Source: a virus (taxonomy: Duplodnaviria > Heunggongvirae > Uroviricota > Caudoviricetes). Taken from it: a stretch of DNA of 64,000 bases. The stretch lies in IMG/VR virus record IMGVR_UViG_3300031565_000009, one strand, 5' to 3'. Below the pieces are notes generated by a model. The model was not told the origin of the DNA, did no database searches, and saw nothing but the letters and a program-made list of their open reading frames with translations. Made by a program: the position numbers and the translations under genes. Position 1 is the stretch's first letter. Every line of letters starts with the position of its first letter. Shown piece by piece: positions 344-60,214 of the stretch.

Positions 344-390
344 CTCTATAAGAGTCGGGGTCAAAAGCACCTGGGTCGGGTCAACTTTTC
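344..390 (-). promoter_or_regulatory. phage promoter-like element copy 1 (TGACCC-N14-TTTTGACCCCGACTCTTATAGAG on minus strand)
   Basis: Plus strand reads ctctataagagtcggggtcaaaa...gggtcaac. Identical core to the copies at 5404, 11357, 14063, 22830 and 60165. Intergenic, downstream of the kinase stop. Confidence 0.55.
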
Positions 391-1043
391 CGCGAAGATT
401 TCGACCGGCGCTTGATATTGTTGGTCTGGATGGGCTCGATGTTGCCCATGCTCACTCCATGCCTCTCCAGTTCCTTTAGTGCTGGCCCCAGATCGTCGGA
501 CACAATATGCGTAAAAGGAACATGCCAGTCGTTCAAACACGTCTCAATGAAACGGTCCATCCCCACCGCCTGAACCAGATTCTCGTAACGGCCACCTTGT
601 TCGTAGGTGTCGGACTGGGCGCGATCCATGAGAAAATTGACAGAGGGGTATTCCTTCTCGAAACGCTTGGCGATCCGCCACAACTCGTTGGCCGCCTTCA
701 TCCGCTTGTGTAAGGCGTACATGCACTGCAAATAGACCGGCGAGTCCGTGACGATAATGTTCACTCCCGCCTGCAAGAGGCGGTCTTCCGTGTGCAACTG
801 CTGAGCGAACGTGTAAACGTAGTCGAACGACTGCATTTGCCTGCCAATGTAAGCCCAGTTCTTCACCCACTCCTGAACAAGTTCCGCCTGGAAACCCTGC
901 TGACGGAGCCAGCCGAACAGCAGGGCGGCCAAGGTGGATTTGCCTACACCAGGTCCACCGTAGATGTTGATCCGCATCATTCTCCCCTCAGTTGTTTCAT
1001 TGTCTGGAGGTAATGCGTTTCGCAGTTGCGGCAATTCCGGCAA
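381..1043 (-). CDS. P-loop NTPase / nucleotide or polynucleotide kinase-like
   Basis: Walker A INIYGGPGVGKSTLAALL resembles the T4 Pnk kinase domain and zeta-toxin/dNK P-loops. The likely true start is MMRINIY near 980; an ATGA overlaps the upstream radical-SAM stop. Confidence 0.5.
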   Translation of the reverse strand: MPELPQLRNALPPDNETTEGRMMRINIYGGPGVGKSTLAALLFGWLRQQGFQAELVQEWVKNWAYIGRQMQSFDYVYTFAQQLHTEDRLLQAGVNIIVTDSPVYLQCMYALHKRMKAANELWRIAKRFEKEYPSVNFLMDRAQSDTYEQGGRYENLVQAVGMDRFIETCLNDWHVPFTHIVSDDLGPALKELERHGVSMGNIEPIQTNNIKRRSKSSRKS

Positions 1044-1819
1044 TAGGCGCTGTCAAGGCTGCTGCACATGGACACCAGCCGATTGCCTGCGTATCGCCCC
1101 ATTACGGCCCGCATGAAACGTGGAGTCGCGCACCAGTAGGAATTGATGTGGCGGACCTTCCACTGGTAGCATTCATCTACCGGCAGCACGGTGGCCGTCT
1201 CGTCCACTTTCGGCTTCTCGGTGTAGTAGGCCATGAAGGTCAGGACTACGGGCACCTGCGCCGCCGTCCAAGCGAGCACTGCTTTGTCGATCAGATGCAA
1301 GTTGGTGCCTGATACCCGCAGACGAACGAACATCAGGTTCGAGGGTGCCCACCAGGACTCCCGATGATACTGTGGGTAATGATACTTCGCGCCGTCTTCC
1401 TCGTGTGGATTGGCCGTCAGAACAACGGGACCCGGGAAGTCGAAACGCGGCACGCTGGTGTTAAAGAAGAATCGCTTATACTGACGGGCTGTCTCGATCA
1501 CCAACTCACGCTGGTTGTTGGAGTCGTTGCCGCAATTCATGCGAACCAGCCCGTCGCCCACTTCCTCCGGGCTTGGAACCAGGGGCATTTGATCCAAGGG
1601 CACGTAGTATGCGCCCGGCCGGTTGAAGAAGCACTGGTTGCAGTCGAACGGGCAGGTGCCAGTTTGCGGAATGCAGTCCCAGAAGTCGGTGCCTTCCTGC
1701 TTGGGGTTTCGTTTCGTGCTCACGACTGATCCTCCGCAATCTGAAGGGCCTCCTCGACCGCCCCGCTTGGCGTATCCCCGTAACCACAGGAGGCATCGGG
1801 GATGATGGGAGCGCCGCAC
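977..1819 (-). CDS. radical SAM enzyme
   Basis: CPFDCNQC is a CxxxCxxC 4Fe-4S/AdoMet cluster motif near the N-terminus. The start is uncertain because it overlaps the upstream gene. Confidence 0.5.
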   Translation of the reverse strand: MRRSHHPRCLLWLRGYAKRGGRGGPSDCGGSVVSTKRNPKQEGTDFWDCIPQTGTCPFDCNQCFFNRPGAYYVPLDQMPLVPSPEEVGDGLVRMNCGNDSNNQRELVIETARQYKRFFFNTSVPRFDFPGPVVLTANPHEEDGAKYHYPQYHRESWWAPSNLMFVRLRVSGTNLHLIDKAVLAWTAAQVPVVLTFMAYYTEKPKVDETATVLPVDECYQWKVRHINSYWCATPRFMRAVMGRYAGNRLVSMCSSLDSAYCRNCRNCETHYLQTMKQLRGE

Positions 1820-2229
1820 TTATTGCAGTTCATGGCACCTTTCGCTAAAGCTGCCATGAAGCAAGGCTCACCGGCCATAGGTGAAAGCACGAAGTCATAG
1901 CCACGCGACACCATCTCGGTGACGCGCTGAAAGAGGCCGGGGTCGTAGATGCCCAGCGGACGAGGCGGGACGGGCTTGTTCTCTCGTGCGTACTGCTGCC
2001 CCTTGTCCGTGATGACGTGGACGATGGCCGTGGTCCCCGTGTCCGTGGGCCGGCGGTTGCCGGTCTTGCGGCAGAGGCCGTTCAATTCCAGGTCGCGGCG
2101 TCGGGTGGGGACATGATTCTTGCTGGCTCCAGTACGGGTAGCCAACTCGGAGTCAGTCAGGCCGTCGTCGCCGGCCTCGTAGAGCAGCTTCAGAAGGATG
2201 TTGCGGATTTTGGGTCGGTCAGCAATCAT
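1720..2229 (-). CDS. winged-helix DNA-binding protein with C-terminal Cys cluster
   Basis: N-terminus LLKLLYEAGDDGLTDSELATRTGASKNHV is an HTH-like segment. The C-terminus carries CNKCGAPIIPDASCGYG. Confidence 0.3.
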   Translation of the reverse strand: MIADRPKIRNILLKLLYEAGDDGLTDSELATRTGASKNHVPTRRRDLELNGLCRKTGNRRPTDTGTTAIVHVITDKGQQYARENKPVPPRPLGIYDPGLFQRVTEMVSRGYDFVLSPMAGEPCFMAALAKGAMNCNKCGAPIIPDASCGYGDTPSGAVEEALQIAEDQS

Positions 2230-2245
2230 GGGTGTTATCTCAGTG

Positions 2246-3157
2246 CTATCTCAAAAGGTGTTGGTTCTCGTTGATGATCTCCGCGATCTCCCGGAGGGCT
2301 CGCAGCGGATCGGCCTCGGTAACGATGCAGCCGGTGAGGCTGCCATAGTGCTCCTCCAGGCAATCGAGGAGAAGCTGCTTGATCTCGTCCTGGCGGGGAC
2401 CCCAGGGAAGGTCGGCCTTCTCATAGAGCCCTTCCAGGAACTTCTCTTTTGCGGCAAAGAAGTCCCTGATCTTCTGTTCGGAGACCTCACCTCGGCGGAT
2501 GGCCTTCAACTCTTCGGCATTGCGCCGCAGGTCCAGGTCGCCCGTGGTGAGAATCTGTTCGATCTCGTACATCAGGCGAACAAGGTGGTAGGCGAACTTC
2601 ACGTCAAAACCATACTGTTCCACCAGGGCGGTCCGCCTGCTGCCCGACTCTGGCGTCCTACCCATTTTCGATAGCTGGCTGTAGGCGTAGCCCTTAAAAC
2701 GGTGCCAGGCCCCCTTGTGCAGGAAGATATGCCGCTTCTCGCGGACCATCTCACCCACCTTCGTGGTGAATAGAACACAGTCGCGCGGCAGGAAGAGGCT
2801 GGCGACCATGTTGGGGTTGTTATCCATCGTGAGATGGAAGTAATGGACCACGTTGTAGATGTTCAGGTCATACTCCCGCCCCTTGCCACCCTGGGCGTCC
2901 TTGTCGAAGACGTGGTGCTTCTGGTAGCAGATGAATCGCTTCTTCTGCCGGCCGAAGCCTTCGATCTCGCCCGCAAGATGCGGGAAGATCATGTCCTTGG
3001 GCGGGATGCACCATCCCACGACATCGAAGTCGCTGGTATCCACGGCCAGGCCGTAGGCATTGGAGCCCTGCACACCCTCGAACTGGATGTTGTCCGGGAG
3101 CCAAGCGGGCGGCGTCAGTAGGCCGCGATCCGTGAGTTGTGAGGTGATGCTCGACAT
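2246..3157 (-). CDS. Pol-beta-superfamily nucleotidyltransferase (PF10127/RlaP-like, from memory)
   Basis: GSNAYGLAVDTSDFDVVG matches the GS...G...SDxD nucleotidyltransferase signature. Its stop abuts the start of the next gene at 3157. Confidence 0.5.
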   Translation of the reverse strand: MSSITSQLTDRGLLTPPAWLPDNIQFEGVQGSNAYGLAVDTSDFDVVGWCIPPKDMIFPHLAGEIEGFGRQKKRFICYQKHHVFDKDAQGGKGREYDLNIYNVVHYFHLTMDNNPNMVASLFLPRDCVLFTTKVGEMVREKRHIFLHKGAWHRFKGYAYSQLSKMGRTPESGSRRTALVEQYGFDVKFAYHLVRLMYEIEQILTTGDLDLRRNAEELKAIRRGEVSEQKIRDFFAAKEKFLEGLYEKADLPWGPRQDEIKQLLLDCLEEHYGSLTGCIVTEADPLRALREIAEIINENQHLLR

Positions 3158-3468
3158 CAGAGGCTCAGCATCTCGGGGAAAGCGGACTCAATGACGTGAG
3201 TTAGGAACTCGTCGCTGGCGGGCACCTCGAACATCCGCTCGGTGTAGCTGGTGTTGTATGTTTGCCAAAAGCCCGCCACCTGGGGTGGTTCTGTCTCGTA
3301 GATCACCAGTTGCTTTGCTGTCGTCTCGCGTGAGAGCACGCATAGCCACATCACGCCATTTTGACAATAGACGACGAACCCGAAGCCTTGGTAAACGGCG
3401 GTAAAGCCTCGGTCCTTCCAGACCCATTGAAGGTTCAGAGTGGCGAGCCGTGATTCAAGGGTGGTCAT
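3157..3468 (-). CDS. hypothetical protein
   Basis: 103-aa ORF tightly packed inside the ligase operon. Confidence 0.3.
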   Translation of the reverse strand: MTTLESRLATLNLQWVWKDRGFTAVYQGFGFVVYCQNGVMWLCVLSRETTAKQLVIYETEPPQVAGFWQTYNTSYTERMFEVPASDEFLTHVIESAFPEMLSL

Positions 3469-3485
3469 TGTTGTACTCCGGTAGT

Positions 3486-4001
3486 TTAGAACTCGTAGTC
3501 AAGTTGCTTGATGATCGCTGTGAACTTCTCGCGGACACGTTCCTTCCGGCGATGGTCATAGAACTCGCGGTAGTGCCGACCGTTTCGGAAGTGGCCAACA
3601 TTGCGGTGTGGCAGCGACGTGTGCGGCAGCCCGGCATCCTTGAGGAAGGCGGCCCAGTCGGCGTCCAGGTTCTCGAAGTGCAGGACGTGGGTTGCATACG
3701 GCAGGCCGAAGAAGAGCCCCTGCTGCACCAGGCGGTTAGTGTTGGTTATCCAGCCGTCAAACCATGTCTCGAATAGCGGGAACTTCGGTATTACGCTGTG
3801 GTAGTGGAAATACCAACTGACGACGGTATCCCACGGATTGCGAACAGTGGCCCCGATAATGCGCAGGCCAGTCAACCAGGGCTCGCGAATTTCGTGATGG
3901 TTGCCGCACTCCTCAAAGCCCAGTTCCATCAGACAGGCGGCGGCCGACTGGCTGCCCGTCTTCGGGTGAGCGATGAAGCCTATGTCATTGAGGAGGTACA
4001 T
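3486..4001 (-). CDS. sulfotransferase-like protein
   Basis: HPKTGSQS resembles the 5'-PSB motif PKSGTT. VRNPWDTVVSWYFHY resembles the 3'-PB motif RDPxDxxxSxY. Confidence 0.45.
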   Translation of the reverse strand: MYLLNDIGFIAHPKTGSQSAAACLMELGFEECGNHHEIREPWLTGLRIIGATVRNPWDTVVSWYFHYHSVIPKFPLFETWFDGWITNTNRLVQQGLFFGLPYATHVLHFENLDADWAAFLKDAGLPHTSLPHRNVGHFRNGRHYREFYDHRRKERVREKFTAIIKQLDYEF

Positions 4002-4046
4002 GGCGGCTCTTCAATGAGTGCAAAGCAGGAATGGTTGATCGACTCT

Positions 4047-4253
4047 TCACAGACAGCGTTTTCGGTCCCAGCCTGAGAAAACAATGCCCAAGGTTCCGAA
4101 GAACCAGGCGGTGGCGAACACAACGAGGCTTATAGCAGTGGGTATCAACCCACCACGAACACAGCCATCAGTAATGATGCCAACGCACGCCAGTCCCATG
4201 ATGAAGGTCAAAATGAACCAGGCTCTAAGCCCACACGGACAATTGGACTTCAC
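4047..4253 (-). CDS. small membrane protein (2 TM)
   Basis: 68 aa and hydrophobic. Its start overlaps the ligase stop (4250/4253). Confidence 0.3.
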   Translation of the reverse strand: MKSNCPCGLRAWFILTFIMGLACVGIITDGCVRGGLIPTAISLVVFATAWFFGTLGIVFSGWDRKRCL

Positions 4254-5377
4254 TCCATGCCCCTCCGTCGCCAGAATCTTGCTTCCTTCGGGATGCCGTC
4301 GTCGCTTAACTCGCGATACTTGAACGTCACGGTCTGGCCAACCTTAAACTGTTTCCCCTGGAAGCCTGTGGGCATATCTTCACCCGGGTGGAAGGTGGCG
4401 TGAGCCGACATCCATCCTTCGGCAAATTCTCGTTCGGCATCAGTGAGCCCGGACAGTTCGAGCCGCTTGCCCTGATAGTTGGTGATGAGCGCCCCGATCT
4501 TCCCCAAAAGCCGGCTGCCTTTGTTGGTCTTACGGCCGGAGGTGAAGCCCGTCACGGTCGCCTCGGCGTCACTGAAAGGCTTGTACTTCAAGAGCCCGCG
4601 ATGCCGCTTGGGTGTCCAGAGCGTCTTCGGGCCGCGAATCACGACACCCTCGCCGCCCTGGTCCAGCACCTTTTCCAGATAGGCTTCCACCTGATTGGCG
4701 GCCTCGACTGGCATGTCGATCAGCCTGGTCTGCGGGTGCATGTAGCACCGTGAGTCAGGATCGCAGTTATCCAGGGCCGTCTGCATGAATCGCAACTCGT
4801 CAGCGAAGACGGACCCAGGCGGCAGGTAGTGGAAGTCGCCTCGCTGCTTCCAGTCACGGCCAAAAACTTCAAGCCGTTGCCGGACCCAGTGCTCGATGGT
4901 GATGTAGTCGATGGGGACCACCATGTTGGCGTTCTTGATCTGCCCCGTCTGAAACACGGAAGCCAGCGGCGGGCTGGAATAGACGGCGAACGTGATCTGG
5001 TCAAAGCGGGGATCGGGCGTATCCCCGGCGCAAATCGAGCGGCAAAGCTGGAAGTTTCCGCGTCCGGCCCATAACTCACCGTCCAACGGACAAGCGGGAA
5101 GCTGGTTCAGGAACCACTCGGGGGCCATGATCGGGTTGCCGTAGCGGCTCCAGAGGCCCGTGGCGACCGGCTTGATCTTGGCTTTCCGCTTCCCAGTCTT
5201 CGGGTCGATGGTATTTGCATAGGGCACCCGCTCGGTCAGGAGGCCACGGGAAAGTCCGCCATCCCAAAAGCAGCGCGTGCCATCCAGCTTCTCTGAGATC
5301 AACCAGCCGGCTACGTCGCTCTTTTCCGGCTTGTAGTGGTTGGCCAGTTGCAGTAGTTCGCGTTTGGTGCTTGACAT
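4250..5377 (-). CDS. ATP-dependent DNA (or RNA) ligase
   Basis: Motif I is EKLDGTRC (KxDGxR). The size fits an adenylation domain plus OB domain. Promoter-like element 2 lies ~25 nt upstream of its ATG. Confidence 0.75.
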   Translation of the reverse strand: MSSTKRELLQLANHYKPEKSDVAGWLISEKLDGTRCFWDGGLSRGLLTERVPYANTIDPKTGKRKAKIKPVATGLWSRYGNPIMAPEWFLNQLPACPLDGELWAGRGNFQLCRSICAGDTPDPRFDQITFAVYSSPPLASVFQTGQIKNANMVVPIDYITIEHWVRQRLEVFGRDWKQRGDFHYLPPGSVFADELRFMQTALDNCDPDSRCYMHPQTRLIDMPVEAANQVEAYLEKVLDQGGEGVVIRGPKTLWTPKRHRGLLKYKPFSDAEATVTGFTSGRKTNKGSRLLGKIGALITNYQGKRLELSGLTDAEREFAEGWMSAHATFHPGEDMPTGFQGKQFKVGQTVTFKYRELSDDGIPKEARFWRRRGME

Positions 5378-5403
5378 GCCAGGGCTCCGGGGTGTAGATC
5401 GCT

Positions 5404-5450
5404 CTCTATAAGAGTCGGGGTCAAAACGGCTCCTGGTGGCTCACAGATTT
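5404..5450 (-). promoter_or_regulatory. phage promoter-like element copy 2
   Basis: Plus strand reads ctctataagagtcggggtcaaaacggctcctggtggctcaca. It lies between the HAD nucleotidase stop and the ligase start. Confidence 0.6.
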
Positions 5451-6013
5451 TTCAATCCCGTTAGATGTAGGAGACCGGCCGACAAATAAGGGCGTGGCTC
5501 TTGACCCCAGGCAGCATTCCAGGGCCTTGGGAATCGCAGAACCTCCCCACCCGCTGCCTCAAACTTGCGGCAGTTTTTCTCGTTGTCGTCGATTAGAAGA
5601 GCGCCACGCTGGGCTAGCTTCCACTTCCGGGGCGTGATGAAGAATTGTCGGTGTATCCACTTAGGCAGATGGACATGAATCCACTCCAGCTTGCCAGCCA
5701 GACAGTCAGGGTCCTTCGTGGGACTGGTAGCAATGTAGATTTCACGACCAACAGCGCGTTTACACGCCTTCAGCAGCCAACAACATTCGGCGGACCTGGG
5801 TGTTTCCGCCCAGACCTGCCGTGAGATTGCCTGCCAGAAGGTAGTGCGCGTGTACTTTCGACCTAGCATCCGGTTTGCTGCCAGCACGATGTCCAGCCTG
5901 CCCGGGTAAGTGCTGTAGTCATCCGCCGCAATGGGAGCACCGAGATGTTGGAGGATGTACGGTGCGAGCGTATTGAGAACATCATCAAGATCGAGATAGA
6001 TAGTGTGAATCAT
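5441..6013 (-). CDS. HAD-family 5'(3')-deoxyribonucleotidase-like phosphatase
   Basis: N-terminal IYLDLDDVL is the DxDx(V/T) HAD motif I of the NT5C type. The Pnkp 3'-phosphatase domain is also HAD-type. Confidence 0.5.
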   Translation of the reverse strand: MIHTIYLDLDDVLNTLAPYILQHLGAPIAADDYSTYPGRLDIVLAANRMLGRKYTRTTFWQAISRQVWAETPRSAECCWLLKACKRAVGREIYIATSPTKDPDCLAGKLEWIHVHLPKWIHRQFFITPRKWKLAQRGALLIDDNEKNCRKFEAAGGEVLRFPRPWNAAWGQEPRPYLSAGLLHLTGLKNL

Positions 6014-6642
6014 CGAAGTTGACTCAGTTTCCTTTCCACTTGTTTCTGGAGTCGTTTAGAGAGGCGGTAAACACTGCGGAGAGAAATCCCCGTCTCGCAG
6101 GCGATCTCTTCGTTGCTGTATCCTTCTTTGCGCATTTCCACAAAACGCCTCTCTCGGTCATCCTTGCAACAGGACATCAGCAAGTCTTCAGCGTCGATCC
6201 AGTCGATTTCCTGGTTGCTTCTGCCAAGTTCAGCAAGTGCCTCCTGCTGCGGCAATTTGCGGTCGGTTCCACGGGTGCGGTAGTGGGTGAAACGCGAGTA
6301 GTAGACCATCACCTCGGAGTCAACTACTTGTCCGAAAGCGTTGTTGATGGCAGCTATCAAGTAGCCTGAAGGCTTCTCGATGGTTGAATCGCGACACAGG
6401 GCTTCAACAGCCTCGATAAGGCAGAGGAAGCCTTGACCAACAAGATCGTTACGTAGATAGGACAGCCTCGGGGTATTGCGAAGGAAGCATTCAACCTTCG
6501 ACAGTACGAGAGGCATGTTGCTTTCGATCAAAGTCCGCTTGGCTGCTTCATCGCCCAAGCAGGCTCGTTGATGTAAATAAGTGTTGGTATCAATGTCTGA
6601 TGGTTCAGTCATTTGCGATACAAGAAGACTGTTGTAGGCCAC
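6010..6642 (-). CDS. sigma-70 family (ECF/FliA-like) sigma factor
   Basis: DLVGQGFLCLIEAVEAL resembles region 2.2. SNEEIACETGISLRSVYRLSKR resembles the region-4 HTH. Confidence 0.5.
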   Translation of the reverse strand: MAYNSLLVSQMTEPSDIDTNTYLHQRACLGDEAAKRTLIESNMPLVLSKVECFLRNTPRLSYLRNDLVGQGFLCLIEAVEALCRDSTIEKPSGYLIAAINNAFGQVVDSEVMVYYSRFTHYRTRGTDRKLPQQEALAELGRSNQEIDWIDAEDLLMSCCKDDRERRFVEMRKEGYSNEEIACETGISLRSVYRLSKRLQKQVERKLSQLR

Positions 6643-6651
6643 GTTGCCCTC

Positions 6652-7185
6652 CTAGTAGATGCGGTCAACGCGCCAGGCGCATTGTGGGAAGAAACTCTGC
6701 TCCTCGCAGGCTTCCAAACCGAAGGCATACTCGTAGCCGTTGGGATCATAGAGGAAGCCGTGATCGTAGGCGGCGGCATGGCCAACCATGCCGGTCATGG
6801 GCACACCACGGAGGCCGGTAACAACGCCACGACTTAGAAGAATCACGTCGCCGAAGGCACACTGGTTGTCGTCGCTCTCGGTTGTAACCACATAGTTCTC
6901 ATAGCCCGGCCTGGGTGGCGCGATCTGCGGGAACATCTCGCAGGGTGTGACAGCGTAGCCATAGTTCAAAGCGAGGCGAATCACCTCTTGGATATGCACG
7001 CCGCGCCAACACAGAGGTTCCGGGAGGCCGGGGAAAATCACGTCATGCCAACCTCTGAGTTGGGACAGGAGGCTTTCCACAGGCATGTCGAGAGCCATTG
7101 CGAATGAGGTTGGCAGGCAGAGACCTTGGGCTGGCATTACTTGCAATTGCATCAGCGCATACTCCCAGCGCAGTTGAAGTTTCAT
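6652..7185 (-). CDS. putative papain-like cysteine peptidase
   Basis: QGLCLPTSFAMAL supplies a candidate catalytic Cys. MVGHAAAYDHGFLYDPNG supplies a candidate His and Asp/Asn. Confidence 0.3.
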   Translation of the reverse strand: MKLQLRWEYALMQLQVMPAQGLCLPTSFAMALDMPVESLLSQLRGWHDVIFPGLPEPLCWRGVHIQEVIRLALNYGYAVTPCEMFPQIAPPRPGYENYVVTTESDDNQCAFGDVILLSRGVVTGLRGVPMTGMVGHAAAYDHGFLYDPNGYEYAFGLEACEEQSFFPQCAWRVDRIY

Positions 7186-7197
7186 GGACGGGGTGAG

Positions 7198-7656
7198 CTA
7201 TTGCTGTGCGCGATGCTCGCGCACTAGCTCGTCGATTAGCGCGTCAACGTCAGGTAATTCGCCCCAGGAGGGTTTCCAGTATTGCCGCCAGTTGGGCGGG
7301 GCGAACAACTTGTTGTATTCCTCTTGTGTGGCGGCGGTGAGAATCCAGATACAGACGCCCTTCTGCTCCCACTCGGGCCACTTCCGCTTTTGCTGCTTCG
7401 TGAACGAGTAGCGCTTTGGCTGCTTTACGTCGATCCAGCGATAGCTCCACTTCGGGTGATGGCAGTAAAGGTCAGGGATGCCCATCTGATAGGCGTTGCC
7501 AATCATCCGTTCAACAAGCCACCCACGAGCCTTCAGATACTCCACCACGTCTTGCTGGATGTACCATTCCGGCCCGTGCTTGGGCCGGCGGATTTTGCTC
7601 ATGGCATCTTCCAGGCCAGCCGCTTTGTGAGCCGGCGGAACATGCCTTGGTGCCAT
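7198..7656 (-). CDS. VRR-NUC domain nuclease
   Basis: VVEYLKARGWLVERMIGNAYQMGIPDLYC carries the GxPDL and K motifs of VRR-NUC. Confidence 0.55.
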   Translation of the reverse strand: MAPRHVPPAHKAAGLEDAMSKIRRPKHGPEWYIQQDVVEYLKARGWLVERMIGNAYQMGIPDLYCHHPKWSYRWIDVKQPKRYSFTKQQKRKWPEWEQKGVCIWILTAATQEEYNKLFAPPNWRQYWKPSWGELPDVDALIDELVREHRAQQ

Positions 7657-7897
7657 TCCCAGATGCGGAAGGCGTCACAGCGGTGCTGGCACTGGAGCCG
7701 AGCCAGCGTGCTGGCGACATAGGAACGCGCAACCTTGGCCGCCGAGGCGGCATCGTTGCCGATCACAGGCCGGCAGACGAGGCCCAAAAGCCACCACGGC
7801 CTGGTGATACACCAGTTGTACTTCGGGTAGTAGTTCCCAATATGCTCCCAGGAGCCGTCCGCGCATCGGGCCTCAATCTCATAGTGGTTGATGTAGC

Positions 7898-10402
7898 TCA
7901 TACCGGTGCCCTTATCTTCACTGTTCGTGAGCCGCCCTTCTTCTCAGCCCAATTGTCTTGTGCTTCATTCCATGTGAGGCCAATCAAAGGCACCTTTGAA
8001 CGAAAGGACTCAACAGCTATACCAACCGCCTCTGTAACCTTCTCCACGTAATCCGGGTGAGTCGCCACCATCAATTCATCGTGTACGTTGAAGGGGCCAA
8101 CATAGAGTGGGTGAACACCCACCGGCTGCAAGTCCCAGATCGCCCGTTGCACGCTCTTCGTGATCTGGGCACCCGGGCTCTGGATTTCATGGTTCGCGGC
8201 AGCCCGCATGTTGGCCGCCTGCATGGCGAAGGCTGCTCCATAGAGGGCCGACTGCGATGCGCCGCCGGCTGTCTGGACGCGATCACGCCGGACCACCTTG
8301 ATCTTCACGTCCTTCCAGTGCTTGGGCGGCTTGTTGGCCAAGTCGTAGAGGGCTTTGCAGATACGGTTTTCCAAAGTGAAATAGCGACGAAAGCCAAGGA
8401 AGGATTCCACGTAATTGGCCGGGTCCACCCAGACAACCTGTGTGCCGATACCCCCGGGCTGTCGCATTGAGCAGAATGCCTCAAACACCCGCCCTCGCCA
8501 CTTCTTGACACCCTTGTATCGCTTGCCGAAGGCGTCAATGGCATCACGAGCATCCTGTTCCCTGACGCCCAGCTTATTCATCAGCGTCGTGTGATCGCCG
8601 CCATAGAGGATGGCACCAAAGAAGCCTTGCTTGCCCTTCGTGTATAGATCATTCTCCATACCGGCTGTTGCCTTGATCTCCTCATAGGTGTAACCAGGAA
8701 AGAGGGCCATGCCAAAAAGAGCATGAATCTTCTTTCCTTGCTGCAACTCAGCACGCAAGGCGTCATCGTCGCACACGGCATCGGCAATCGTCACCTCGAA
8801 AGCATCGAAGTCGCCGCCACAGAGGGTGTAATTGTCCCAGGCCAGCGGAAACTGCTTGCGAACTTCCTTCGTGGCCTTAATACCCTGGGCGTTGAGGCCA
8901 TCTGACCCGCTCATGCGGGAGGAGAGCGCACCAATCACATTGAAGCTGGCATGAAACTTGCCAGCCAAAAGCAGCTTCTTATACAGTTCCACTTCCTTGG
9001 CAGCCGTCTTCACGTTGAGAATCTGCTTGCTTCGCACGGCCGCCGGATGTTTGCCCACAGGTACATCCCCCTCACCGTGACAGCGGGCACACTGCGGGTC
9101 CGACCCCTCGCAACGGGTGCAGGGTTCAGGCTCTCCGACGAGGCCCAGCCCGCCGCACTCCGGGCAGGGCGACGGCTTAATGTCGCTGCCCTCGGGTGGC
9201 GGGTCCAGAGTCACAACACTCTTGCCCTTGCAGACTGGGCACTGCTCACCGATCTCCCACTTGACAATGGCTTCGAGGTTGGTCTTCCTCGTGCTTTCTT
9301 CAAGGATCACCGCCTCGGTGTCATCACAGGCAGCCGTGATGTAGGCCCGCACCTCACTCGGCTTATTGATGTTGACCGGGCTGGCATCTACCCTAGCCTG
9401 AGCCTCGGCCAGCAGACCGTTCATACCAGCATGATTGATCTTGAAGCCGCGCCAGCGGATGCTGGCGACCATACAGGTGAGGATTGAGTCATCATCGCCG
9501 TGGGGCGGATCGCCGAAGTGATGATCGAGTGCCCGGGTGTAGACAATATCGTCGTTGGCGTACTCGCGGGCGTTCTCATGTGTGCGCCAGTGTTCAACGA
9601 ACCTGTGGATCACGCCGGGCCAGGCGTAACCTTTGACTCGCACCTCGCCTTTAGGAGTTTTGCCCCAGATGGCCCAATCCTTCTCCGGCGTGGAGATGGC
9701 CAGGGCGGTAGGGGCGTAGCCCAACTCAATAGGTCGCCAATCCGTAGGTGGTTCCACATCCTTGTAGTGAAACTTGGGCTTCAACTTCAGAACATGCTCA
9801 GCCAAAAACTTCAAGCCGCCGGCCGGGTTGAACCGAAGCACCACGTCCTTGAAATCCGGGTCGATGTCGCCATAGCGGTCATGGCGGTCAAAGACCTGCC
9901 ACTTGGGAGCCTCTGGATCGCTGGACTTGGCAAAGTAGATGTTGTCCAGTTCGATCCGTTTTTCCAACTCGGCCGCCAGAGCATAAGCTAGTGCGATGGG
10001 CACCCGCTTGATGCGGACATCATTGCGGCTCATAAGCGATTGCATCGGACCCTTGCGGCTGTGCATCAGCAAGTCAAGGGCGCTGTACGGCTTGACGCAG
10101 GGGCCATTTTGCGCGGCCGGCTCCAGCATAGCGATCTCGTTGACGTGCTCGATGGGTAGCCACTCGGGATCGCAGAGCCGGAGAATGGTGTAGAGTTTCG
10201 TGATATGGAACCAATCGAACGAGAGGTTGAAGCCCACAACGATATTCTCACAGAACCACTCGATCAGAACCAATGTCTCTCGCACTGTCTGATGCCACAC
10301 CTCATACAAATGAATGGGTCCATCTTCTAGCGCGTATTGCAGGAGAACCGGCATCCCATGCAGCCCACACGTCTCAGAATCAAGGTAGACTTTTCTAGGC
10401 AT
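7898..10402 (-). CDS. family A DNA polymerase with 3'-5' exonuclease
   Basis: YLDSETCGL is the Exo I motif. DFDAFEVTIA matches motif A and NVHDELMV matches motif C. An insertion carries four CxxC pairs. The likely start is MPRKVYLDSE at 10402; the ORF track extends to 10570. Confidence 0.7.
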   Translation of the reverse strand: MPRKVYLDSETCGLHGMPVLLQYALEDGPIHLYEVWHQTVRETLVLIEWFCENIVVGFNLSFDWFHITKLYTILRLCDPEWLPIEHVNEIAMLEPAAQNGPCVKPYSALDLLMHSRKGPMQSLMSRNDVRIKRVPIALAYALAAELEKRIELDNIYFAKSSDPEAPKWQVFDRHDRYGDIDPDFKDVVLRFNPAGGLKFLAEHVLKLKPKFHYKDVEPPTDWRPIELGYAPTALAISTPEKDWAIWGKTPKGEVRVKGYAWPGVIHRFVEHWRTHENAREYANDDIVYTRALDHHFGDPPHGDDDSILTCMVASIRWRGFKINHAGMNGLLAEAQARVDASPVNINKPSEVRAYITAACDDTEAVILEESTRKTNLEAIVKWEIGEQCPVCKGKSVVTLDPPPEGSDIKPSPCPECGGLGLVGEPEPCTRCEGSDPQCARCHGEGDVPVGKHPAAVRSKQILNVKTAAKEVELYKKLLLAGKFHASFNVIGALSSRMSGSDGLNAQGIKATKEVRKQFPLAWDNYTLCGGDFDAFEVTIADAVCDDDALRAELQQGKKIHALFGMALFPGYTYEEIKATAGMENDLYTKGKQGFFGAILYGGDHTTLMNKLGVREQDARDAIDAFGKRYKGVKKWRGRVFEAFCSMRQPGGIGTQVVWVDPANYVESFLGFRRYFTLENRICKALYDLANKPPKHWKDVKIKVVRRDRVQTAGGASQSALYGAAFAMQAANMRAAANHEIQSPGAQITKSVQRAIWDLQPVGVHPLYVGPFNVHDELMVATHPDYVEKVTEAVGIAVESFRSKVPLIGLTWNEAQDNWAEKKGGSRTVKIRAPV

Positions 10403-10913
10403 GATAAAGCTGGTCGTCGTACTCACCAATGAACCGCAGGATTTCCCGCTCGTCTTGAACGACCCGCCGGGCATTTTCCGCGCCGCTGGCATCAACTTCG
10501 GCACAACACTCGCACAGCACCTCCAGGGCAATGGCGTAAGTCTTCCAGTGGTCTCTCGCGTAGGTAGCAAACATCAAGGCGACCGTTGAAGCGGCCGTCT
10601 GGTTGACAAGCTGCGAAGCCAGGACATCCCAACTTTCCGAAACTTTCTCTGCTTGCGTACAAAGATTGACAAGCTGCGGAGCCAGGACATCCCAACTTTC
10701 CGTAACTTTCTCTGCTTGCATACAAAGATTGCAGGCCGCCTCCTGAAGAGACAGATTGGCCTCCTGACAAATGGTCAACTCCATCTGGCAAGAAGCCAAA
10801 GCCATTCGATATTGCTCAATCTCGCGCCGTTTGCGTGCAAACAGGAGGAGGAAGTAGATGCCGCACAAAGTCACAAGTGTGCAGGCGCAGATTGTGAGCA
10901 CAGTTGTCATCAT
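10395..10913 (-). CDS. coiled-coil protein with 21-aa tandem repeat and N-terminal TM
   Basis: CTQAEKVSESWDVLASQLVN is repeated. It is encoded by a 63-bp tandem duplication. Confidence 0.35.
   Translation of the reverse strand: MMTTVLTICACTLVTLCGIYFLLLFARKRREIEQYRMALASCQMELTICQEANLSLQEAACNLCMQAEKVTESWDVLAPQLVNLCTQAEKVSESWDVLASQLVNQTAASTVALMFATYARDHWKTYAIALEVLCECCAEVDASGAENARRVVQDEREILRFIGEYDDQLYHA
10605..10730. repeat. 63-bp tandem duplication (2 copies)
   Basis: gacaagctgcg(a/g)agccaggacatcccaactttccg(a/t)aactttctctgcttgc(g/a)tacaaagatt occurs twice in succession. Confidence 0.8.
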
Positions 10914-10949
10914 AGGGGTTTCTCCATCGGGTAGATAAGGGCAACGACG

Positions 10950-11348
10950 TTAGAACACGTCGAGATGCCATTCTTTGCCACGCACCGATGCGGACAGGAC
11001 TACGCCCGTCTCGAACACCGCGTTGCGGAATACAATGACAAGTCGCCTGGCAGGGCCGATCCATGCCTGCCGCTTGTCATCACGGTCGAGAGCACTGAAT
11101 GAGTGATCCAGCAAACCGACCGTGGCCGTATGAAGTCGCGGATCGGTTCCCGAAACTTCAACATACTGCCTAGTGGGATCGACGATTACCAACTCGTAGA
11201 TGCCGTTGTCGGTCTCGATCAGAATCGTGTCACCAACATGCCGCTGGCGAATGTCGATGCCTTGCTTCGAGTGGTCAATAACGGATTGCAGTGGCGGTGT
11301 GACGGCCTCTCCCTGAGCGTCGTCGTAGGGCTCGAAGTTGTCGTGCAT
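10950..11348 (-). CDS. hypothetical protein
   Basis: ORF starting at MHDNFEPYDD, ~10 nt downstream of promoter-like element 3. The track's upstream ATG at 11378 lies inside the element. Confidence 0.3.
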   Translation of the reverse strand: MHDNFEPYDDAQGEAVTPPLQSVIDHSKQGIDIRQRHVGDTILIETDNGIYELVIVDPTRQYVEVSGTDPRLHTATVGLLDHSFSALDRDDKRQAWIGPARRLVIVFRNAVFETGVVLSASVRGKEWHLDVF

Positions 11349-11356
11349 GTTAGGTC

Positions 11357-11402
11357 CCTCTACAAGAGTCGGGGTCAATTTGCCGCTGGGTGGGTCACTT
11401 TC
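11357..11402 (-). promoter_or_regulatory. phage promoter-like element copy 3 (variant CTCTTGTAGAG)
   Basis: Plus strand reads ctctacaagagtcggggtcaatttgccgctgggtgggtcac. Confidence 0.5.
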
Positions 11403-12208
11403 TCCATATCAGCGGTCAATTCCTCATTCGTGATATGACCGGCACACCATGCCCCCACCCTTGTTGGGAGGCCCGTGATGCCCAATTCCAACATCTTGGA
11501 GACCATCTGATTGATCTCCTCGCGGTTCCGCACGCGGTTGATCCGCTTGGCCGACTTCTGAAAGGGGCGAAAGCCTTTTCGCCGCCCCGGCTTCCGCTCT
11601 CGGTGAGACCGCACTAACTCCTCGGCAGCCCTGATCTGGGCTTCCTTGCCCTCTTCGATACGATCCAGAATCTCGATGTCCGCCCGCCGCAGCAGGCCGG
11701 CGGCCACCATCGTTTGGATTTCTTCCGGCAGTTGCAGGAGGCGAAGCCGTATGTAGGCCCAATAGTAGGGCCGCTGCAACTCGGTCTTGACCTTTATGAT
11801 GGAGGCCCCTTCCGGGAAGAGGCGCTGAATCGCACGAGCCTCTTCGAGAATGTTCAGGTCTTTCCTCTCCAGATTCTCCAGGAAGTTCAGCTTGTGTGCT
11901 TCCCAGTCAGAGAGATTGGCACGAATGTTGGCTGGAATGGTTTCCCAATCCAGGAAGGTCATAATCGCCTTGAAACGGCGATGGCCCGCAAGAAGCCGGT
12001 ATTCATAGTCCGGCCGCTGGTCCCACGGCTGAACGATCACCGGGTACGCGAGGCCATCCTTCCCAATGCTGTCGGCCAGTTCCTTCACGCTATCCAGAGT
12101 AAAGGCGCTACGACAGTTGAAGTCTGGGTCGTAGTAGATCAGGCTTGAATGGATGGCGAACGTGTCGTACTGCTCAAGACGTTCCATGAAGGCCCTCCAA
12201 GCGATCAA
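11375..12208 (-). CDS. ParB-like nuclease domain protein
   Basis: YRLLAGHRRFKAIM is a ParB/Srx N-terminal domain motif. Confidence 0.5.
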   Translation of the reverse strand: MIAWRAFMERLEQYDTFAIHSSLIYYDPDFNCRSAFTLDSVKELADSIGKDGLAYPVIVQPWDQRPDYEYRLLAGHRRFKAIMTFLDWETIPANIRANLSDWEAHKLNFLENLERKDLNILEEARAIQRLFPEGASIIKVKTELQRPYYWAYIRLRLLQLPEEIQTMVAAGLLRRADIEILDRIEEGKEAQIRAAEELVRSHRERKPGRRKGFRPFQKSAKRINRVRNREEINQMVSKMLELGITGLPTRVGAWCAGHITNEELTADMEKVTHPAAN

Positions 12209-12467
12209 GGATCAGCTTGCCGAAATCAGCAAGGAAGCTGCCGGCGCAGCCACAGGCGAACAGCACGAACAGGTTGACACTGACCAGAACCAGACCCAGC
12301 GCCACGCCGCACCAGAAGCCGCAACACTGATAGCACTCAAACAGGCCATGATGCAGCTTCGCGGGCAGTCGATTCTTGGCCCACTCGTCCACGGAGTCCA
12401 TGATCTCAGAGTCCACCATGATATGAGTCATGCCGACGACACCGAGAATAAAGAGGATCAGATTCAT
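12174..12467 (-). CDS. small membrane protein
   Basis: Hydrophobic ORF. The likely start is MNLILFILGVV, abutting the metallophosphoesterase stop. Confidence 0.25.
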   Translation of the reverse strand: MNLILFILGVVGMTHIMVDSEIMDSVDEWAKNRLPAKLHHGLFECYQCCGFWCGVALGLVLVSVNLFVLFACGCAGSFLADFGKLILDRLEGLHGTS

Positions 12468-13462: not shown

Positions 13463-13481
13463 GAGGGTACTCGCAGAGAAG

Positions 13482-13554
13482 AGCCGGCGATCGGACTTGA
13501 ACCGACAACCGGCTGATTACAAATCAGCAGCCCTGCCAATTGGGCTACGCCGGC
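13482..13554 (-). tRNA. tRNA-Thr(UGU)
   Basis: Folds canonically by hand: acceptor GCCGGCG/CGCCGGC, D-arm GCCC-AATTGGCA-GGGC, anticodon loop TTTGTAA, T-arm GTCGG-TTCAAGT-CCGAT. Confidence 0.75.
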
Positions 13555-13558
13555 AAGA

Positions 13559-13632
13559 GTTGCGGGGCGGGGATCGAACCCGCGACCTTCAGATTATAGG
13601 CCTGACAAGCTACCGACTGCTCCACCCCGCAA
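13559..13632 (-). tRNA. tRNA-like, noncanonical (possible anticodon UAU, or a pseudo-tRNA)
   Basis: Canonical T-arm GCGGG-TTCGATC-CCCGC and D-arm GAGC-AGTCGGTA-GCTT. One extra nucleotide between the acceptor and D stems. Anticodon loop CCUAUAA has C at position 33. Confidence 0.4.
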
Positions 13633-13633
13633 G

Positions 13634-13705
13634 CTGTAGCGGCAGGACTCGAACCTGCAACCATCGGATTAACAGTCCGGTGCGCTACCGTTGCGCCACG
13701 CTACA
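13634..13705 (-). tRNA. tRNA-Asn(GUU)
   Basis: Acceptor TGTAGCG/CGCTACA, D-arm GCGC-AACGGTA-GCGC, anticodon loop CTGTTAA, T-arm GCAGG-TTCGAGT-CCTGC. Confidence 0.7.
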
Positions 13706-13721
13706 GTGACTTCCGTGTGTG

Positions 13722-14033
<312 letters not shown>

Positions 14034-14062: not shown

Positions 14063-14110
14063 CTCTACAGTAGTCGGGGTCAAAACCGTCCCAGCCGGCT
14101 CACGAATTTT
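14063..14110 (-). promoter_or_regulatory. phage promoter-like element copy 4 (variant CTACTGTAGAG)
   Basis: Plus strand reads ctctacagtagtcggggtcaaaaccgtcccagccggctcacg. Confidence 0.5.
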
Positions 14111-22829: not shown

Positions 22830-22878
22830 CTCTATAAGAGTCGGGGTCAAAAATGCCCTGGAAGGGTCACACTTTTTC
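22830..22878 (-). promoter_or_regulatory. phage promoter-like element copy 5
   Basis: Plus strand reads ctctataagagtcggggtcaaaaatgccctggaagggtcaca. A GC hairpin in the 5' leader follows, at 22788-22822. Confidence 0.55.
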
Positions 22879-52010: not shown

Positions 52011-52012
52011 GC

Positions 52013-53923: not shown

Positions 53924-55591
53924 TCAGAGGAACTTGCTGATGTTCTCGCCAGTGGTCATGGACGCTGCCAGAGGTAGAGCCATTTCCGCGTAAGTAAGCG
54001 AGTGGGCGTAGTGGTCGGGTCCCGTTGCCACGTAGACCATCTTGTAGTTACCCTTGTCGTCCTTCTCAAAGGTCCGCACAAGGTTCTTCAGATGTTCGCG
54101 GTACTCCAACGAGATGTCGCGCGGCAACTGAATGCGAGGCGGCTTCGCCTTAAAACGCCCCAGAGAGCATGACAGCCAATTGGTGCGATCCACCTGGGCA
54201 ATCGGAGCGTTATCCTGCTCCTCGATGGACATTTCCTTTGCAGTCTGGCCACGGCGATACCGGGTCAACCAGACGTAGCCCCAGAAACGACGAGCGAAGC
54301 GGCGAGCCTCATTGATGTTCGGGTCAGCATCGACGACGCAGGCGAGAACCTGCCACTCACGCATCAACTCGTCAAGGTATTTCCAGTCTTCCTCGCCAAA
54401 ACGGCCAAACCAAAGCACCTTCCCCCGCGCCACCGCATTGATGTCGCGGTCCATACGATCCAGCGACCACTCCGCCACCGTAATGTAGCCAACCTTACCC
54501 TGGTCCACACCCATCGTTATCAGCTTCTCGCGACCGATTGCGGGTCGAGGATCGTTGATAGTGTAATTGCTGACAGCGGCATCAATCATGTCATCCGTGA
54601 TCTGAGCGTGGTCGCCGAGAAAGGGGAGACCCAACTTTGAATTATGAAACTCTTTATTGGCCGCCTCGTCTCCCAGGCCGCGATGGTAGGACACGACCAA
54701 TTCAGCAGGCGAGACCGTGTAGGAGTACATCTGGCTGATATGAAGGCCGCGAATAACTGGATTCGCCTGCTCGTTCATCACTTTCCAGATGGCACTGCTT
54801 AGCCACTCGGGCTTCGCCGCGTGCTCCAGTCGGCCCTGGCATTCCTTGCACTTCAGGAACGACTCGCTGCATCGCGGGTCCAAGACCGTTTCACCGATGA
54901 TCTCGATGCAGTCCGGCCAAACCAGTTCTGTCCACCGACCGCAGCGTGGGCACTTGAAAACAAAGTGCTCCTGGGTCGAGGTGAGGAACAGCTTATGGAT
55001 TCCATAATTCGGAATCGTCGGCGTCGAAATGGCCCAGACATGCTTTTCTAACTGGCCACTGAGTCGTTCCAACGCCAGCCAGATTTGTTTCTGATCCATC
55101 TCGTCCACCTCGTCCAGGATCAGGTCCGAGACGGGAATGGACTTCAAGTTGCTATCACCGCGCGAGCCACGAATGTAGAGCGAGTTGGCCGCCGTCCGCT
55201 TCAAGTTGACCGTATCAGTGTCCTTGAAGATCAATTTCAGATAAGGACTCAAGTTGAGGGCCGCATTGAAGCGGGCCTTACTGAAGTCGCCAGCATTCAG
55301 TGCGGTTGGCAGCACGTAGAGCACGTCACGTCGCAGCCAGTCGAGCACATACAGCGCCCGATTGATCGCCACCTCGGTCACGCCCAACTGTGCGCCCTTC
55401 ATCACGTAGTTGAAGAGCGCATTCGAGTCCAGAATGTCCTTGACCCAGGGGTGATACTTCCAACCATACGAACCTGGAAACGGCTGCCCCATGATGCGCC
55501 GCTTCGCTGACCACCGCGAACAACTGGTCAGCGTTCGAGTCTGGCCACTGTCACAAACCGACGTGACAAATGCGTCGTTTAGCTGGTTCAT
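53924..55591 (-). CDS. terminase large subunit
   Basis: ATPase N-terminus. LILDEVDEMD is Walker B. A Zn ribbon CPRCGRW precedes the C-terminal nuclease region GVDQGKVGYITVAEW. Confidence 0.7.
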   Translation of the reverse strand: MNQLNDAFVTSVCDSGQTRTLTSCSRWSAKRRIMGQPFPGSYGWKYHPWVKDILDSNALFNYVMKGAQLGVTEVAINRALYVLDWLRRDVLYVLPTALNAGDFSKARFNAALNLSPYLKLIFKDTDTVNLKRTAANSLYIRGSRGDSNLKSIPVSDLILDEVDEMDQKQIWLALERLSGQLEKHVWAISTPTIPNYGIHKLFLTSTQEHFVFKCPRCGRWTELVWPDCIEIIGETVLDPRCSESFLKCKECQGRLEHAAKPEWLSSAIWKVMNEQANPVIRGLHISQMYSYTVSPAELVVSYHRGLGDEAANKEFHNSKLGLPFLGDHAQITDDMIDAAVSNYTINDPRPAIGREKLITMGVDQGKVGYITVAEWSLDRMDRDINAVARGKVLWFGRFGEEDWKYLDELMREWQVLACVVDADPNINEARRFARRFWGYVWLTRYRRGQTAKEMSIEEQDNAPIAQVDRTNWLSCSLGRFKAKPPRIQLPRDISLEYREHLKNLVRTFEKDDKGNYKMVYVATGPDHYAHSLTYAEMALPLAASMTTGENISKFL

Positions 55592-59479: not shown

Positions 59480-59492
59480 GATGGCAGATCAG

Positions 59493-60125
59493 CTACAGGG
59501 GCGGCCCGGACAGAAGTTTCATGCCCCGAGCAGGCTCTTCATTCTGAGCGCTCTTGGCGCAGACAAGGAAGCGATGGAATATCTCGTCTGCCACCATCTC
59601 ATAACGCTCAATGCCCTCTTCTTTCAGCACCTCGATAACGATTTCGCCCAATTGATTGGCTAGACGGATGGCCGTCTCTTTTGACATGAGCAAACCGAGG
59701 TTTTGTTCAAGAACATGGGCCGACTTGACGAGCCGTTCAACAGTCAGAAGAAGCTGGTTCAGTGGGGCACAGGAAGCCAGCATGTCGTTCTTGCCCTCGA
59801 TGCTGTTCAGCCTCTCCTCGATCAGCATCCGGGTGATAGCAATCTCGTCCCGAAGCGACTTCACTTTTTCGTGGTCACTCAACGCGGCCAGACGTTGGCG
59901 GTATTCGGCTTTCGTGAGGAGGTACTGCCGGCGCTCACGTTGTAGACTCTGATCCACCCCGCCGCAGGCAGCGCAATACTCAGACCCGGACTCCGCATAA
60001 TTGCTGCACTGCCCGTCGCGGGCATTGCCCTTGCAGCGTCGGGGATCAGCCGGATCATCAACTTGCTTCATCGCGCACCCTAATGCCAAAGAGACAACTC
60101 CTCCTCTATCTATAAGGATGAGCAA
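59493..60125 (-). CDS. first late-operon protein (N-terminal Zn ribbon plus helical C-terminus)
   Basis: CKGNARDGQCSNYAESGSEYCAACGG. The likely start is a TTG near 60089 or the ATG at 60071, downstream of the GAGGAGGAG SD. Confidence 0.3.
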   Translation of the reverse strand: MLILIDRGGVVSLALGCAMKQVDDPADPRRCKGNARDGQCSNYAESGSEYCAACGGVDQSLQRERRQYLLTKAEYRQRLAALSDHEKVKSLRDEIAITRMLIEERLNSIEGKNDMLASCAPLNQLLLTVERLVKSAHVLEQNLGLLMSKETAIRLANQLGEIVIEVLKEEGIERYEMVADEIFHRFLVCAKSAQNEEPARGMKLLSGPPL

Positions 60126-60140
60126 ACACGGTCAATTTTG
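60105..60140 (-). promoter_or_regulatory. sigma70-like late promoter TTGACC-N15-TATAGAT, followed by the GAGGAGGAG SD
   Basis: Minus strand reads TTGACCGTGTTTGCTCATCCTTATAGATAGAGGAGGAG. Confidence 0.35.
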
Positions 60141-60164
60141 CCAGAAAACCGAAAAATGCAGAAA

Positions 60165-60214
60165 AAGTCCCGCATGACCCTCCGTAAGCCTTTTTGACCC
60201 CGACTCTTATAGAG
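60165..60214 (+). promoter_or_regulatory. phage promoter-like element copy 6 (plus orientation)
   Basis: catgaccc-N14-tttttgaccccgactcttatagagg. Drives the rightward genes beginning at 60272. Confidence 0.55.

Follow-up and report, generated by a model that had tools for sequence, protein, structure and literature searches.

It is well established that phages can redirect the RNA polymerase (RNAP) of their hosts with sigma factors of their own. The sigma gp47 of Salmonella phage 7-11 serves eight promoters of the form GTAAtg-N16-aCTA and gp36 of phage phiEco32 serves six promoters with the sequence tAATGTAtA (PMC8948821), and in Bacillus phage SPO1 gp28 (middle) and gp33/34 (late) replace the host sigma and switch the temporal class of transcription (PMC13401047). 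The sigma-dependent promoters of the phiEco32-like phages are the closest experimentally studied counterparts, with the SPO1 systems more remote, of a repeated element that we describe here from a 64,000-nucleotide stretch of DNA (the window) of the IMG/VR virus record IMGVR_UViG_3300031565_000009. The window is part of the genome of an uncultured tailed phage of a previously undescribed lineage, and contigs with the genes of this phage reach 93 kb. Judged from the sequence, the element probably represents a set of middle-type promoters, which would be read by the host core RNAP together with a two-domain sigma factor that the phage encodes at 6010-6642.

Copies and consensus of the element

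Read toward the downstream genes, the element has the consensus (A-rich)-g-TGA(G/C)CC-N13-TTGACCCCGACT(C/A)(T/C)T(A/G)TAGAG. A scan of the window for its core TTTTGACCCCGACT, with up to two mismatches allowed, gave six sites, five on the minus strand (353-366, 5413-5426, 11367-11380, 14072-14085 and 22839-22852) and one on the plus strand (60192-60205), compared with an expectation of 0.34 and a maximum of 2 in shuffled sequence. All six copies have a TGA(C/G)CC box (box 1) followed after N14 by the TGACCC of the block (box 2), with a start-to-start distance of exactly 20 bp, for which 0.52 occurrences are expected in the shuffles. An initial annotation of the window had proposed these six copies, this spacing and an A-rich tract upstream; the pattern scan and a position weight matrix (PWM) recovered the copies, and the 20 nt located 5' of box 1 are indeed A-rich, with 35% A where intergenic DNA has 19% (binomial p = 1.5e-6).

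We extended the search beyond the window with metagenomic contigs of 100% identity (L002 and L003 on the right, L004 on the left; 9-10 kb per side). Contigs from other samples were also 100% identical to the window. The 46-nt PWM scored 53-64 bits for eight copies, namely the six in the window and two in the left flank (L004 5269-5314, equivalent to window −160..−115, and L004 12223-12268, equivalent to window −7114..−7069), and the right flank contained none. TGASCC stands at the invariant distance in all eight. Besides these copies, the scan of the window, L002 and L004 (about 83 kb) gave no site above 8 bits, and none at a random or mid-gene position. Since eight copies score at least 53 bits and nothing falls between 8 and 53 bits, they constitute a discrete class of sites rather than the tail of a degenerate motif. 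The degenerate copy that had been suggested at 24931 is not a member of this class, having only CCGACTCTTA (10 nt) in common with it, neither of the TGACCC boxes, and a score of less than 8 bits. Exact-pattern scans for the element gave no match in IMG/VR, one in the JGI metagenome contigs (L005) and two in the GTDB genomes (L015 and L016); these three matches were attributed to chance, because they are single, intragenic and without box 1.

All copies are located at gene boundaries, either intergenic or with an overlap confined to the final codon(s) of the gene before them, and every copy is oriented toward the next same-strand gene. Copy 1 (344..389, minus strand; 60.2 bits) has box 1, TGACCC, at 383-378 and the block TTGACCCCGACTCTTATAGAG at 364-344, with a predicted start at about 349-346, and the AAA_28 gene upstream of it (381-980) terminates with the TGA of box 1. 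The final G of copy 2 (5404..5449, minus; 64.4 bits) lies 26 nt before the ATG (5377) of the gene for the ATP-dependent DNA ligase, and the NT5C-like gene upstream of this copy likewise terminates with the TGA of box 1 (TGAGCC). Copy 3 (11358..11403, minus; 55.6 bits) ends 9 nt before the ATG of a gene of 132 amino acids (MHDNFE) and heads the operon with the DNA polymerase A (PolA) gene and the sigma gene; here the upstream ParB_N gene terminates with the TGA of box 2, and the element shares its last bases with the Shine-Dalgarno sequence GAGG. Copy 4 (14063..14108, minus; 53.3 bits), with the variant ...GACTACTGTAGAG, stands 29 nt before the GTG of a gene for an acidic (poly-D) protein of 101 amino acids, and its operon runs on through tRNA-Asn/Ile/Thr, a Metallophos gene and a ParB_N gene. 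Copy 5 (22830..22875, minus; 64.3 bits) is separated from the start codon by 183 nt, counted from its final G, and this structured leader is followed by an operon encoding an SNF2 helicase, a trypsin-like protease, a methylase and an exonuclease. Copy 6 (60169..60214, plus; 54.4 bits), the sole copy on the plus strand, precedes the two-gene operon 60272-61032 by 57 nt and is divergent from the operon 59493-60089 on the minus strand. The initial annotation had called the copies intergenic and pointing at the next same-strand gene: the boundaries and the orientation hold, but copies 1-3 overlap upstream stop codons. Its distances were close for the ligase (about 25 nt) and MHDNFE (about 10 nt) but not for the poly-D GTG (about 35 nt). 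Together, the eight copies head essentially all operons of the replication and nucleotide-metabolism region, including the tRNA cluster and the sigma-gene operon, and they are restricted to this region and the operon 60272-61032.

Counterparts in related phages

Searches of viral contigs with the sigma, P0005 or P0006 as the query gave no relatives. Relatives with long contigs were found through the sigma alignment, and six loci were examined. The six loci are syntenic with the window in the order ParB_N, small gene(s), PolA, small genes, sigma, NT5C-like and ligase, and their sigmas are homologous to that of the window. Four of the six (L006, L011, L012 and L014; sigma identities within 31-46%) have a multi-copy intergenic motif of their own, a copy of which directly follows the ParB_N gene in L006, L011 and L012 and stands upstream of the ligase gene in all four. 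The closest relative, L006 (sigma identity 46%), has four copies of (GAATC)TGTGAGCC-N13-TTGGCACCTAGTATG, which can also be given as GAATCTGTGAGCC-N13-TTGGCACCTAGTATG or GTGAGCC-N13-TTGGCACCTAGTATG; L011 (36%) has four copies of GAATnTGCAACC-N16-CGTTCTAAG, L012 (36%) two copies of GGAATCTGCAACC-N16-CGTAA(T/G), and L014 (32%) three copies of AAAACC-N16-CGTG(T/G)TA(A/T)T.

Promoters of extracytoplasmic function (ECF) sigmas have AAC in the −35 element, a spacer of 16-17 bp and CGT in the −10 element, as in the sigma-E/sigma-W consensus; this AAC/CGT paradigm was reportedly set out by Staron and colleagues in 2009. The motifs of L011, L012 and L014 have a signature of this ECF type, AACC-N16-CGT. 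The window and L006 have the −35 box and a TTGnCnCC box in common at identical spacing, and when the motifs are aligned on the CC that ends the −35 box, GAATCTG-TGAGCC of the window corresponds to GAATCTG-CAACC of the relatives. Sixteen bases past this CC stand ACCCC in the window, GCACC in L006 and CGT in L011, L012 and L014. The spacing of the two boxes in the window fits a −35/−10 pair with a 16-17-bp spacer. Because the relatives show the same geometry at the same map positions, the window element can be read as the −35 box, the 16-bp spacer and the −10/start block of the same promoter family: its upstream half would be a −35 box homologous to those of the sister phages, and the second TGACCC would fall in the −10 region.

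This comparison takes away the significance that had been given to the TGACCC direct repeat. In the sister phages the two boxes differ in sequence (TGCAACC and CGTTCTAAG; AAAACC and CGTGTTAAT), suggesting that the repeat is an accident of the window phage and that the conserved feature is the −35/16-bp/−10 geometry. The same observations bear on a different explanation, in which a host holoenzyme (with an ECF or other alternative sigma, or with sigma70) would depend for transcription on an activator from the phage at both TGACCC boxes, which are two helical turns apart, and the phage sigma would serve other genes, such as the late ones. Such an activator would account for the direct repeat on the same helix face in the window phage and for an invariant block that exceeds the needs of a sigma, and candidates exist in several HTH and ParB-like DNA-binding proteins; also, no promoter other than the second motif class described below has been assigned to the late and remaining operons. 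We nevertheless consider it unlikely, because the relatives keep the −35/N16/−10 geometry without the repeat, their ECF-type motifs are left unexplained, the class of the motif tracks the class of the phage sigma, and no sigma70-like −10/−35 pair is present at a workable distance (TTGACC-N8-TATAGA, TGASCC-N28-TATAGA).

As for the sigmas themselves, their sequence groups match the motif groups. The sigmas of the window and L006 share a region-2.4-like segment (AI.NAFG..V..EV..YYSR.T) and the type of recognition helix, and those of L011, L012 and L014 share a different pair of region-2.4-like segment and recognition helix.

Start site, sigma factor and search for RNA polymerase

The Shine-Dalgarno sequence begins 0-5 nt past the conserved block in copy 3 of the window and in copies 2-4 of L006, and a tRNA-Asn gene begins 12 nt past copy 1 of L006. 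With a Shine-Dalgarno sequence or a tRNA so near the element, the start must lie within its 3' end; the distance to the start codon, which varies from 9 to 183 nt, together with the tRNA context, indicates a transcriptional rather than a translational signal. We infer a start at about positions 35-38 (TTATAG), counted from the T of box 1. This would put box 1 at about −37..−32 and the A/GAAT tract immediately before it, an arrangement that would be as expected for the holoenzyme of a multisubunit RNAP.

Several other assignments were tried. TATAGA or TAGTAT as the −10 element was rejected, since the Shine-Dalgarno sequence of four copies would precede the start. A promoter of the housekeeping sigma70 (TTGACA-N17-TATAAT, spacing 16-18 bp) was also rejected, in agreement with the initial annotation, as the distance to TATAGA is 8 bp from TTGACC and 28 bp from TGASCC; a sigma70 consensus scan reported none of the element copies, and the region 1-14200 of the window showed no excess of sigma70-consensus promoters or intrinsic terminators. 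The element contains no pair typical of a sigma54 promoter (GG-N10-GC; TGGCAC-N5-TTGC at −24/−12), and the TGGCAC of L006 is not followed by TTGC at N5. The canonical ECF signature (AAC in −35, CGT in −10) is not found in the window phage, which has GAGCC/GACCC and ACCCCGACT, so that the element was placed in no defined ECF group and was filed as sigma-70-family-dependent with an ECF-like architecture. A terminator or hairpin reading was ruled out for want of a consistent inverted repeat.

That the element might not be a promoter at all, and might instead serve as an operator or as a parS-like site bound by a ParB-like protein, as a boundary sequence for recombination between gene modules or as an RNA-processing site, is quite improbable. 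In favour of such a role, the phage encodes two proteins with a ParB_N domain and has a ParB_N gene immediately before one copy, the copies overlap with stop codons and coincide with module boundaries, and gene conversion could have produced their near-identity. However, the element is asymmetric, without a palindrome or consistent hairpin, every copy points strictly the same way as the gene downstream of it and is followed by a Shine-Dalgarno sequence and start codon at a variable distance or, in L006, by a tRNA, and the divergent motifs of the relatives, with the same architecture and an ECF signature, fit a promoter and not a recombination scar.

Neither a single-subunit nor a multisubunit RNAP was found by Pfam, PHROG and PDB sequence searches of all large open reading frames (ORFs) in the window and about 19 kb of flanks, which amount to about 83 kb of a genome of at least 93 kb. 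No scanned ORF matched RNA_pol/RPOL_N or any RNAP PHROG, and the four ORFs of at least 800 amino acids encode PolA, the primase, the tape measure protein and a tail-module protein. No Pfam RNAP family was recorded in the 12-21-kb loci around the sigma homologues of the six relatives, where many genes have no Pfam match of any kind. The initial annotation was thus right that the window encodes no single-subunit RNAP, and the T7-like RNAP gene that it supposed might lie outside the window was not found in the flanks.

This result bears on the T7/SP6-type reading of the core CGACTC-T-TATAGAG, according to which the element would be the promoter of a single-subunit (T7/SP6-like) phage RNAP encoded outside the window. 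The invariant block of about 23 bp has the size of a T7-type promoter, there is a likeness to the T7 consensus in CGACTC and TATAG and to the SP6 start in TATAGAG, and the RNAP gene might be sought in the remaining 10 kb or so of the longest contig. This reading is very improbable. Besides the negative search, the likeness requires a gap of 1 nt, and in an ungapped alignment only TATA aligns with the T7 consensus. T7-type promoters have their upstream edge at −17, and a conserved box about 37 bp upstream at a fixed spacing, with an A-tract, is not a T7-type feature. Furthermore, CGACTC-T-TATAGAG is absent from L006, which has TTGGCACCTAGTATG in its place, and L011, L012 and L014 have AACC-N16-CGT at the same map positions. 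The tempting T7-like reading is therefore in all likelihood wrong, and is corrected here.

The product of the gene at 6010-6642 (minus strand; 210 amino acids) is a genuine but divergent two-domain sigma factor of the sigma-70 family, with region 2 and region 4 but no clear region 3; it is ECF-like in size, and its region 2 is nearest to those of group-3 sigmas. It matched Sigma70_ECF (1.9e-5) and also region 4 (r4_2) in Pfam, and phrog_351 (6e-9). An exhaustive HMMER search gave 429 clusters (50% identity) of relatives of about 200-230 amino acids, and a profile made from 50 of the relatives, when compared with the PDB, matched region 2 of SigF at 7e-19, and also SigK, SigA, RpoS and RpoD, with region 4 in the C-terminal part. 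The AlphaFold model has a pLDDT of 91.8, and its top Foldseek matches are without exception sigma factors from structures of holoenzymes. Each of the six sigmas compared has a match to NCBIfam TIGR02937, that of the window at 5e-10 with 39.2 bits, slightly below the 42.9-bit cut-off. The sigma factor noted in the initial annotation is thus upheld, and it is the best candidate for the factor that recognises the element.

The sigma gene belongs to the operon headed by copy 3, from which it is separated by PolA and three small genes, and no terminator-like site stands out between copy 3 and the sigma gene. The sigma gene is located downstream of a motif copy in L006, L011 and L014 as well. Most ECF sigmas have their own gene under their own motif (autoregulation). 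No anti-sigma partner was identified.

We therefore propose no phage polymerase, but the following use of the host enzyme. The gTGA(G/C)CC of box 1 (positions 1-6) would be the −35 element contacted by region 4 of the sigma, and the A-rich/GAAT-like tract just upstream would be an extended −35 or UP-like element. A 16-bp spacer ending in TTTTG would lead to the putative −10 element within ACCCCGACT (positions 23-31), contacted by region 2, and the last conserved bases would be the discriminator and the start site, with initiation within TTATAG. Host core RNAP carrying the phage sigma would in this way initiate at no fewer than eight promoters and drive the replication and nucleotide-metabolism operons (ligase, PolA, helicase, exonuclease, methylases and tRNAs). 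With the sigma gene within a target operon, positive autoregulation would result, and the first sigma molecules would come from another promoter class or from read-through.

Some observations weigh against this proposal. The −35 element of the window has no AAC and the −10 element no CGT, so the element matches no characterised ECF group. A sigma would not require an invariant block as long as 21-23 nt, and the excess length may point to some further constraint or factor. The link between sigma and element is drawn from co-occurrence and co-variation only, and the apparent co-variation of motif class with sigma sequence comes from few phages (five) and is confounded by phylogeny. No shared motif was found in L009 and L017, both of which bear the sigma. 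As region 2 is most like that of the group-3 sporulation sigmas, and not of the ECF sigmas, the spacer rule that we assumed may not transfer. The view of the genome also covers about 83 kb of a 93-kb contig.

A more speculative and rather doubtful extension would bring several of these observations together. The sigma would belong to a large, wholly uncharacterised clade (the 429 clusters, without a cultured representative), in the lineage of the window phage its promoter specificity would have drifted from the ECF AAC/CGT to the C-rich GAGCC/ACCCC, and the long invariant 3' part GACTCTTATAGAG, ending in a TTRTAG that recurs in the unrelated second motif described below, would for that reason be a separate initiator/discriminator read not by the sigma but by the core RNAP or an additional phage factor. 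If so, the family would supply a naturally occurring series of orthogonal sigma/promoter pairs together with a start-site element imposed by the phage. Independently of this extension, the sigma family is broad in metagenomes and is accompanied by different motifs at conserved map positions, so that it can be mined for orthogonal sigma/promoter pairs, and it may be used to follow the co-evolution of −35 and −10 specificity with regions 4 and 2. The proposed promoters would also assign a transcription strategy to an uncultured phage lineage with a genome of at least 93 kb, namely its own sigma, its own promoter class and autoregulated middle operons.

Other features of the genome and comparison with known systems

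A second motif, TGGCAA-N13-TGCTCATCC-nTTRTAG, has exactly three occurrences, at 24876-24903 (plus), 24771-24798 (minus) and 60116-60143 (minus), followed by (G/T)T(T/A)(T/G)(A/T)G. It is located on both arms of the divergent region 24682-25024, between a ParB-like gene and the primase gene, and before the operon 59493-60089, and its 3' TTRTAG is common to the main element. The initial annotation had proposed a different, sigma70-like promoter for other operons; a different motif indeed exists, but its match to sigma70 is only partial, with TTGGCA being −35-like and TCATCC a poor −10. From its sequence and positions the second motif may be an early promoter class. The initial supply of sigma would probably come from a different promoter class, for which this motif is a candidate, and transcription from 24798 on the minus strand would run toward copy 5 and beyond. 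Note that three closely spaced TGTCAC boxes (ctgTTGTCACgtt, ctgcTGTCACc and ctgcTGTCACgtt) at 24682-24760, in the 5' part of this divergent region, resemble operator sites of a repressor.

The three tRNA genes (Thr-TGT, Ile-TAT and Asn-GTT) within the operon of copy 4 are located at 13481-13705 on the minus strand, and an Rfam search gave these three tRNAs and nothing further. The relatives L006, L009 and L012 have tRNA-Asn in the same neighbourhood, in L006 directly behind a motif copy. The leader behind copy 5 (22646-22830, minus) contains a strong GC hairpin (GCCCGCCC...GGGCGGGC) and has a tRNA-like layout, with a 7-bp acceptor-type stem GACGCCG/CGGCGTC beside the T-arm CCAGGTTCGACACCTGG. 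Neither ARAGORN nor Rfam made a call in the leader, and its overall folding z-score is only −0.9. The replication module of L017 (sigma, PolA, ParB and ligase), which is syntenic with that of the window, lies inside an assembled contig of 4.2 Mb; this could be a prophage-like form, an episomal form or a mis-assembly.

The structural genes of the window include those for the tape measure protein (39422-43162), the major head protein, the portal and TerL (53924-55591), and the replication genes those for PolA, the primase, the SNF2 helicase, the ligase and the exonuclease. None of 50,697 sequenced phages is a near relative of the window phage. Megablast with 25 kb of the window against INPHARED gave no match, nor did tblastn with the window sigma against the sequenced phages of INPHARED, and TerL, PolA and the sigma of L011 had distant matches only among the sequenced phages. 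For a protein of 132 amino acids (62747-63145, minus), encoded in the minus-strand block on the right, a precomputed Pfam match to TadE (Flp pilus assembly) is on record, which is unusual in a phage. Outside the window, L002 5355-7865 (about window 65281-67791, minus) carries a topoisomerase-like pair of genes, one for a protein of 322 amino acids (phrog_6247, 1.6e-110) and one for a protein of 479 amino acids with a weak GHKL ATPase match. The former is about 44-48% identical to proteins of unrelated phages (Pseudanabaena phage Pam3, Xylella phage Salvo and Pseudomonas phages PaMx25 and NP1), suggesting a mobile module.

Compared with the known systems, the window phage resembles the phiEco32-like phages in having its own sigma-70-family factor and six to eight highly similar promoters before operons. 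The promoters are bipartite with a 16-bp spacer, as in phage 7-11, and the predicted start lies a few bp past the −10-like element, with the host core RNAP predicted to be redirected without a phage polymerase. It differs from them in that its sigma has no BLAST-detectable similarity to sequenced phages in INPHARED, and in that the boxes have other sequences and the invariant block is much longer (21-23 nt). Moreover, the element precedes replication and nucleotide-metabolism operons, including the one with the sigma gene, whereas the phiEco32-like promoters serve late structural genes.

The likeness to the bacterial ECF (group 4) sigmas lies in the two-domain structure (regions 2 and 4, about 210 amino acids), the rigid spacing and the presence of the sigma gene in a target operon. 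In contrast to these, the window and L006 have GAGCC/GACCC in the −35 element and ACCCC/GCACC in the −10 region without CGT, and region 2 of the window sigma matches best with those of the SigF/SigK/SigA type. With the promoters of T7, T3 and SP6 the element shares about 23 near-invariant bp, a TATAG-like start and multiple copies before operons, but it is 1 nt out of register, has the additional −37..−32 box and the A-tract, belongs to a phage in which a search of about 83 kb gave no single-subunit RNAP gene, and has a core that is not conserved in the relatives. SPO1 likewise has distinct bipartite promoters, although no sequence relationship is detectable and only one sigma is seen in the window phage, in which that single factor is predicted to serve the middle operons.

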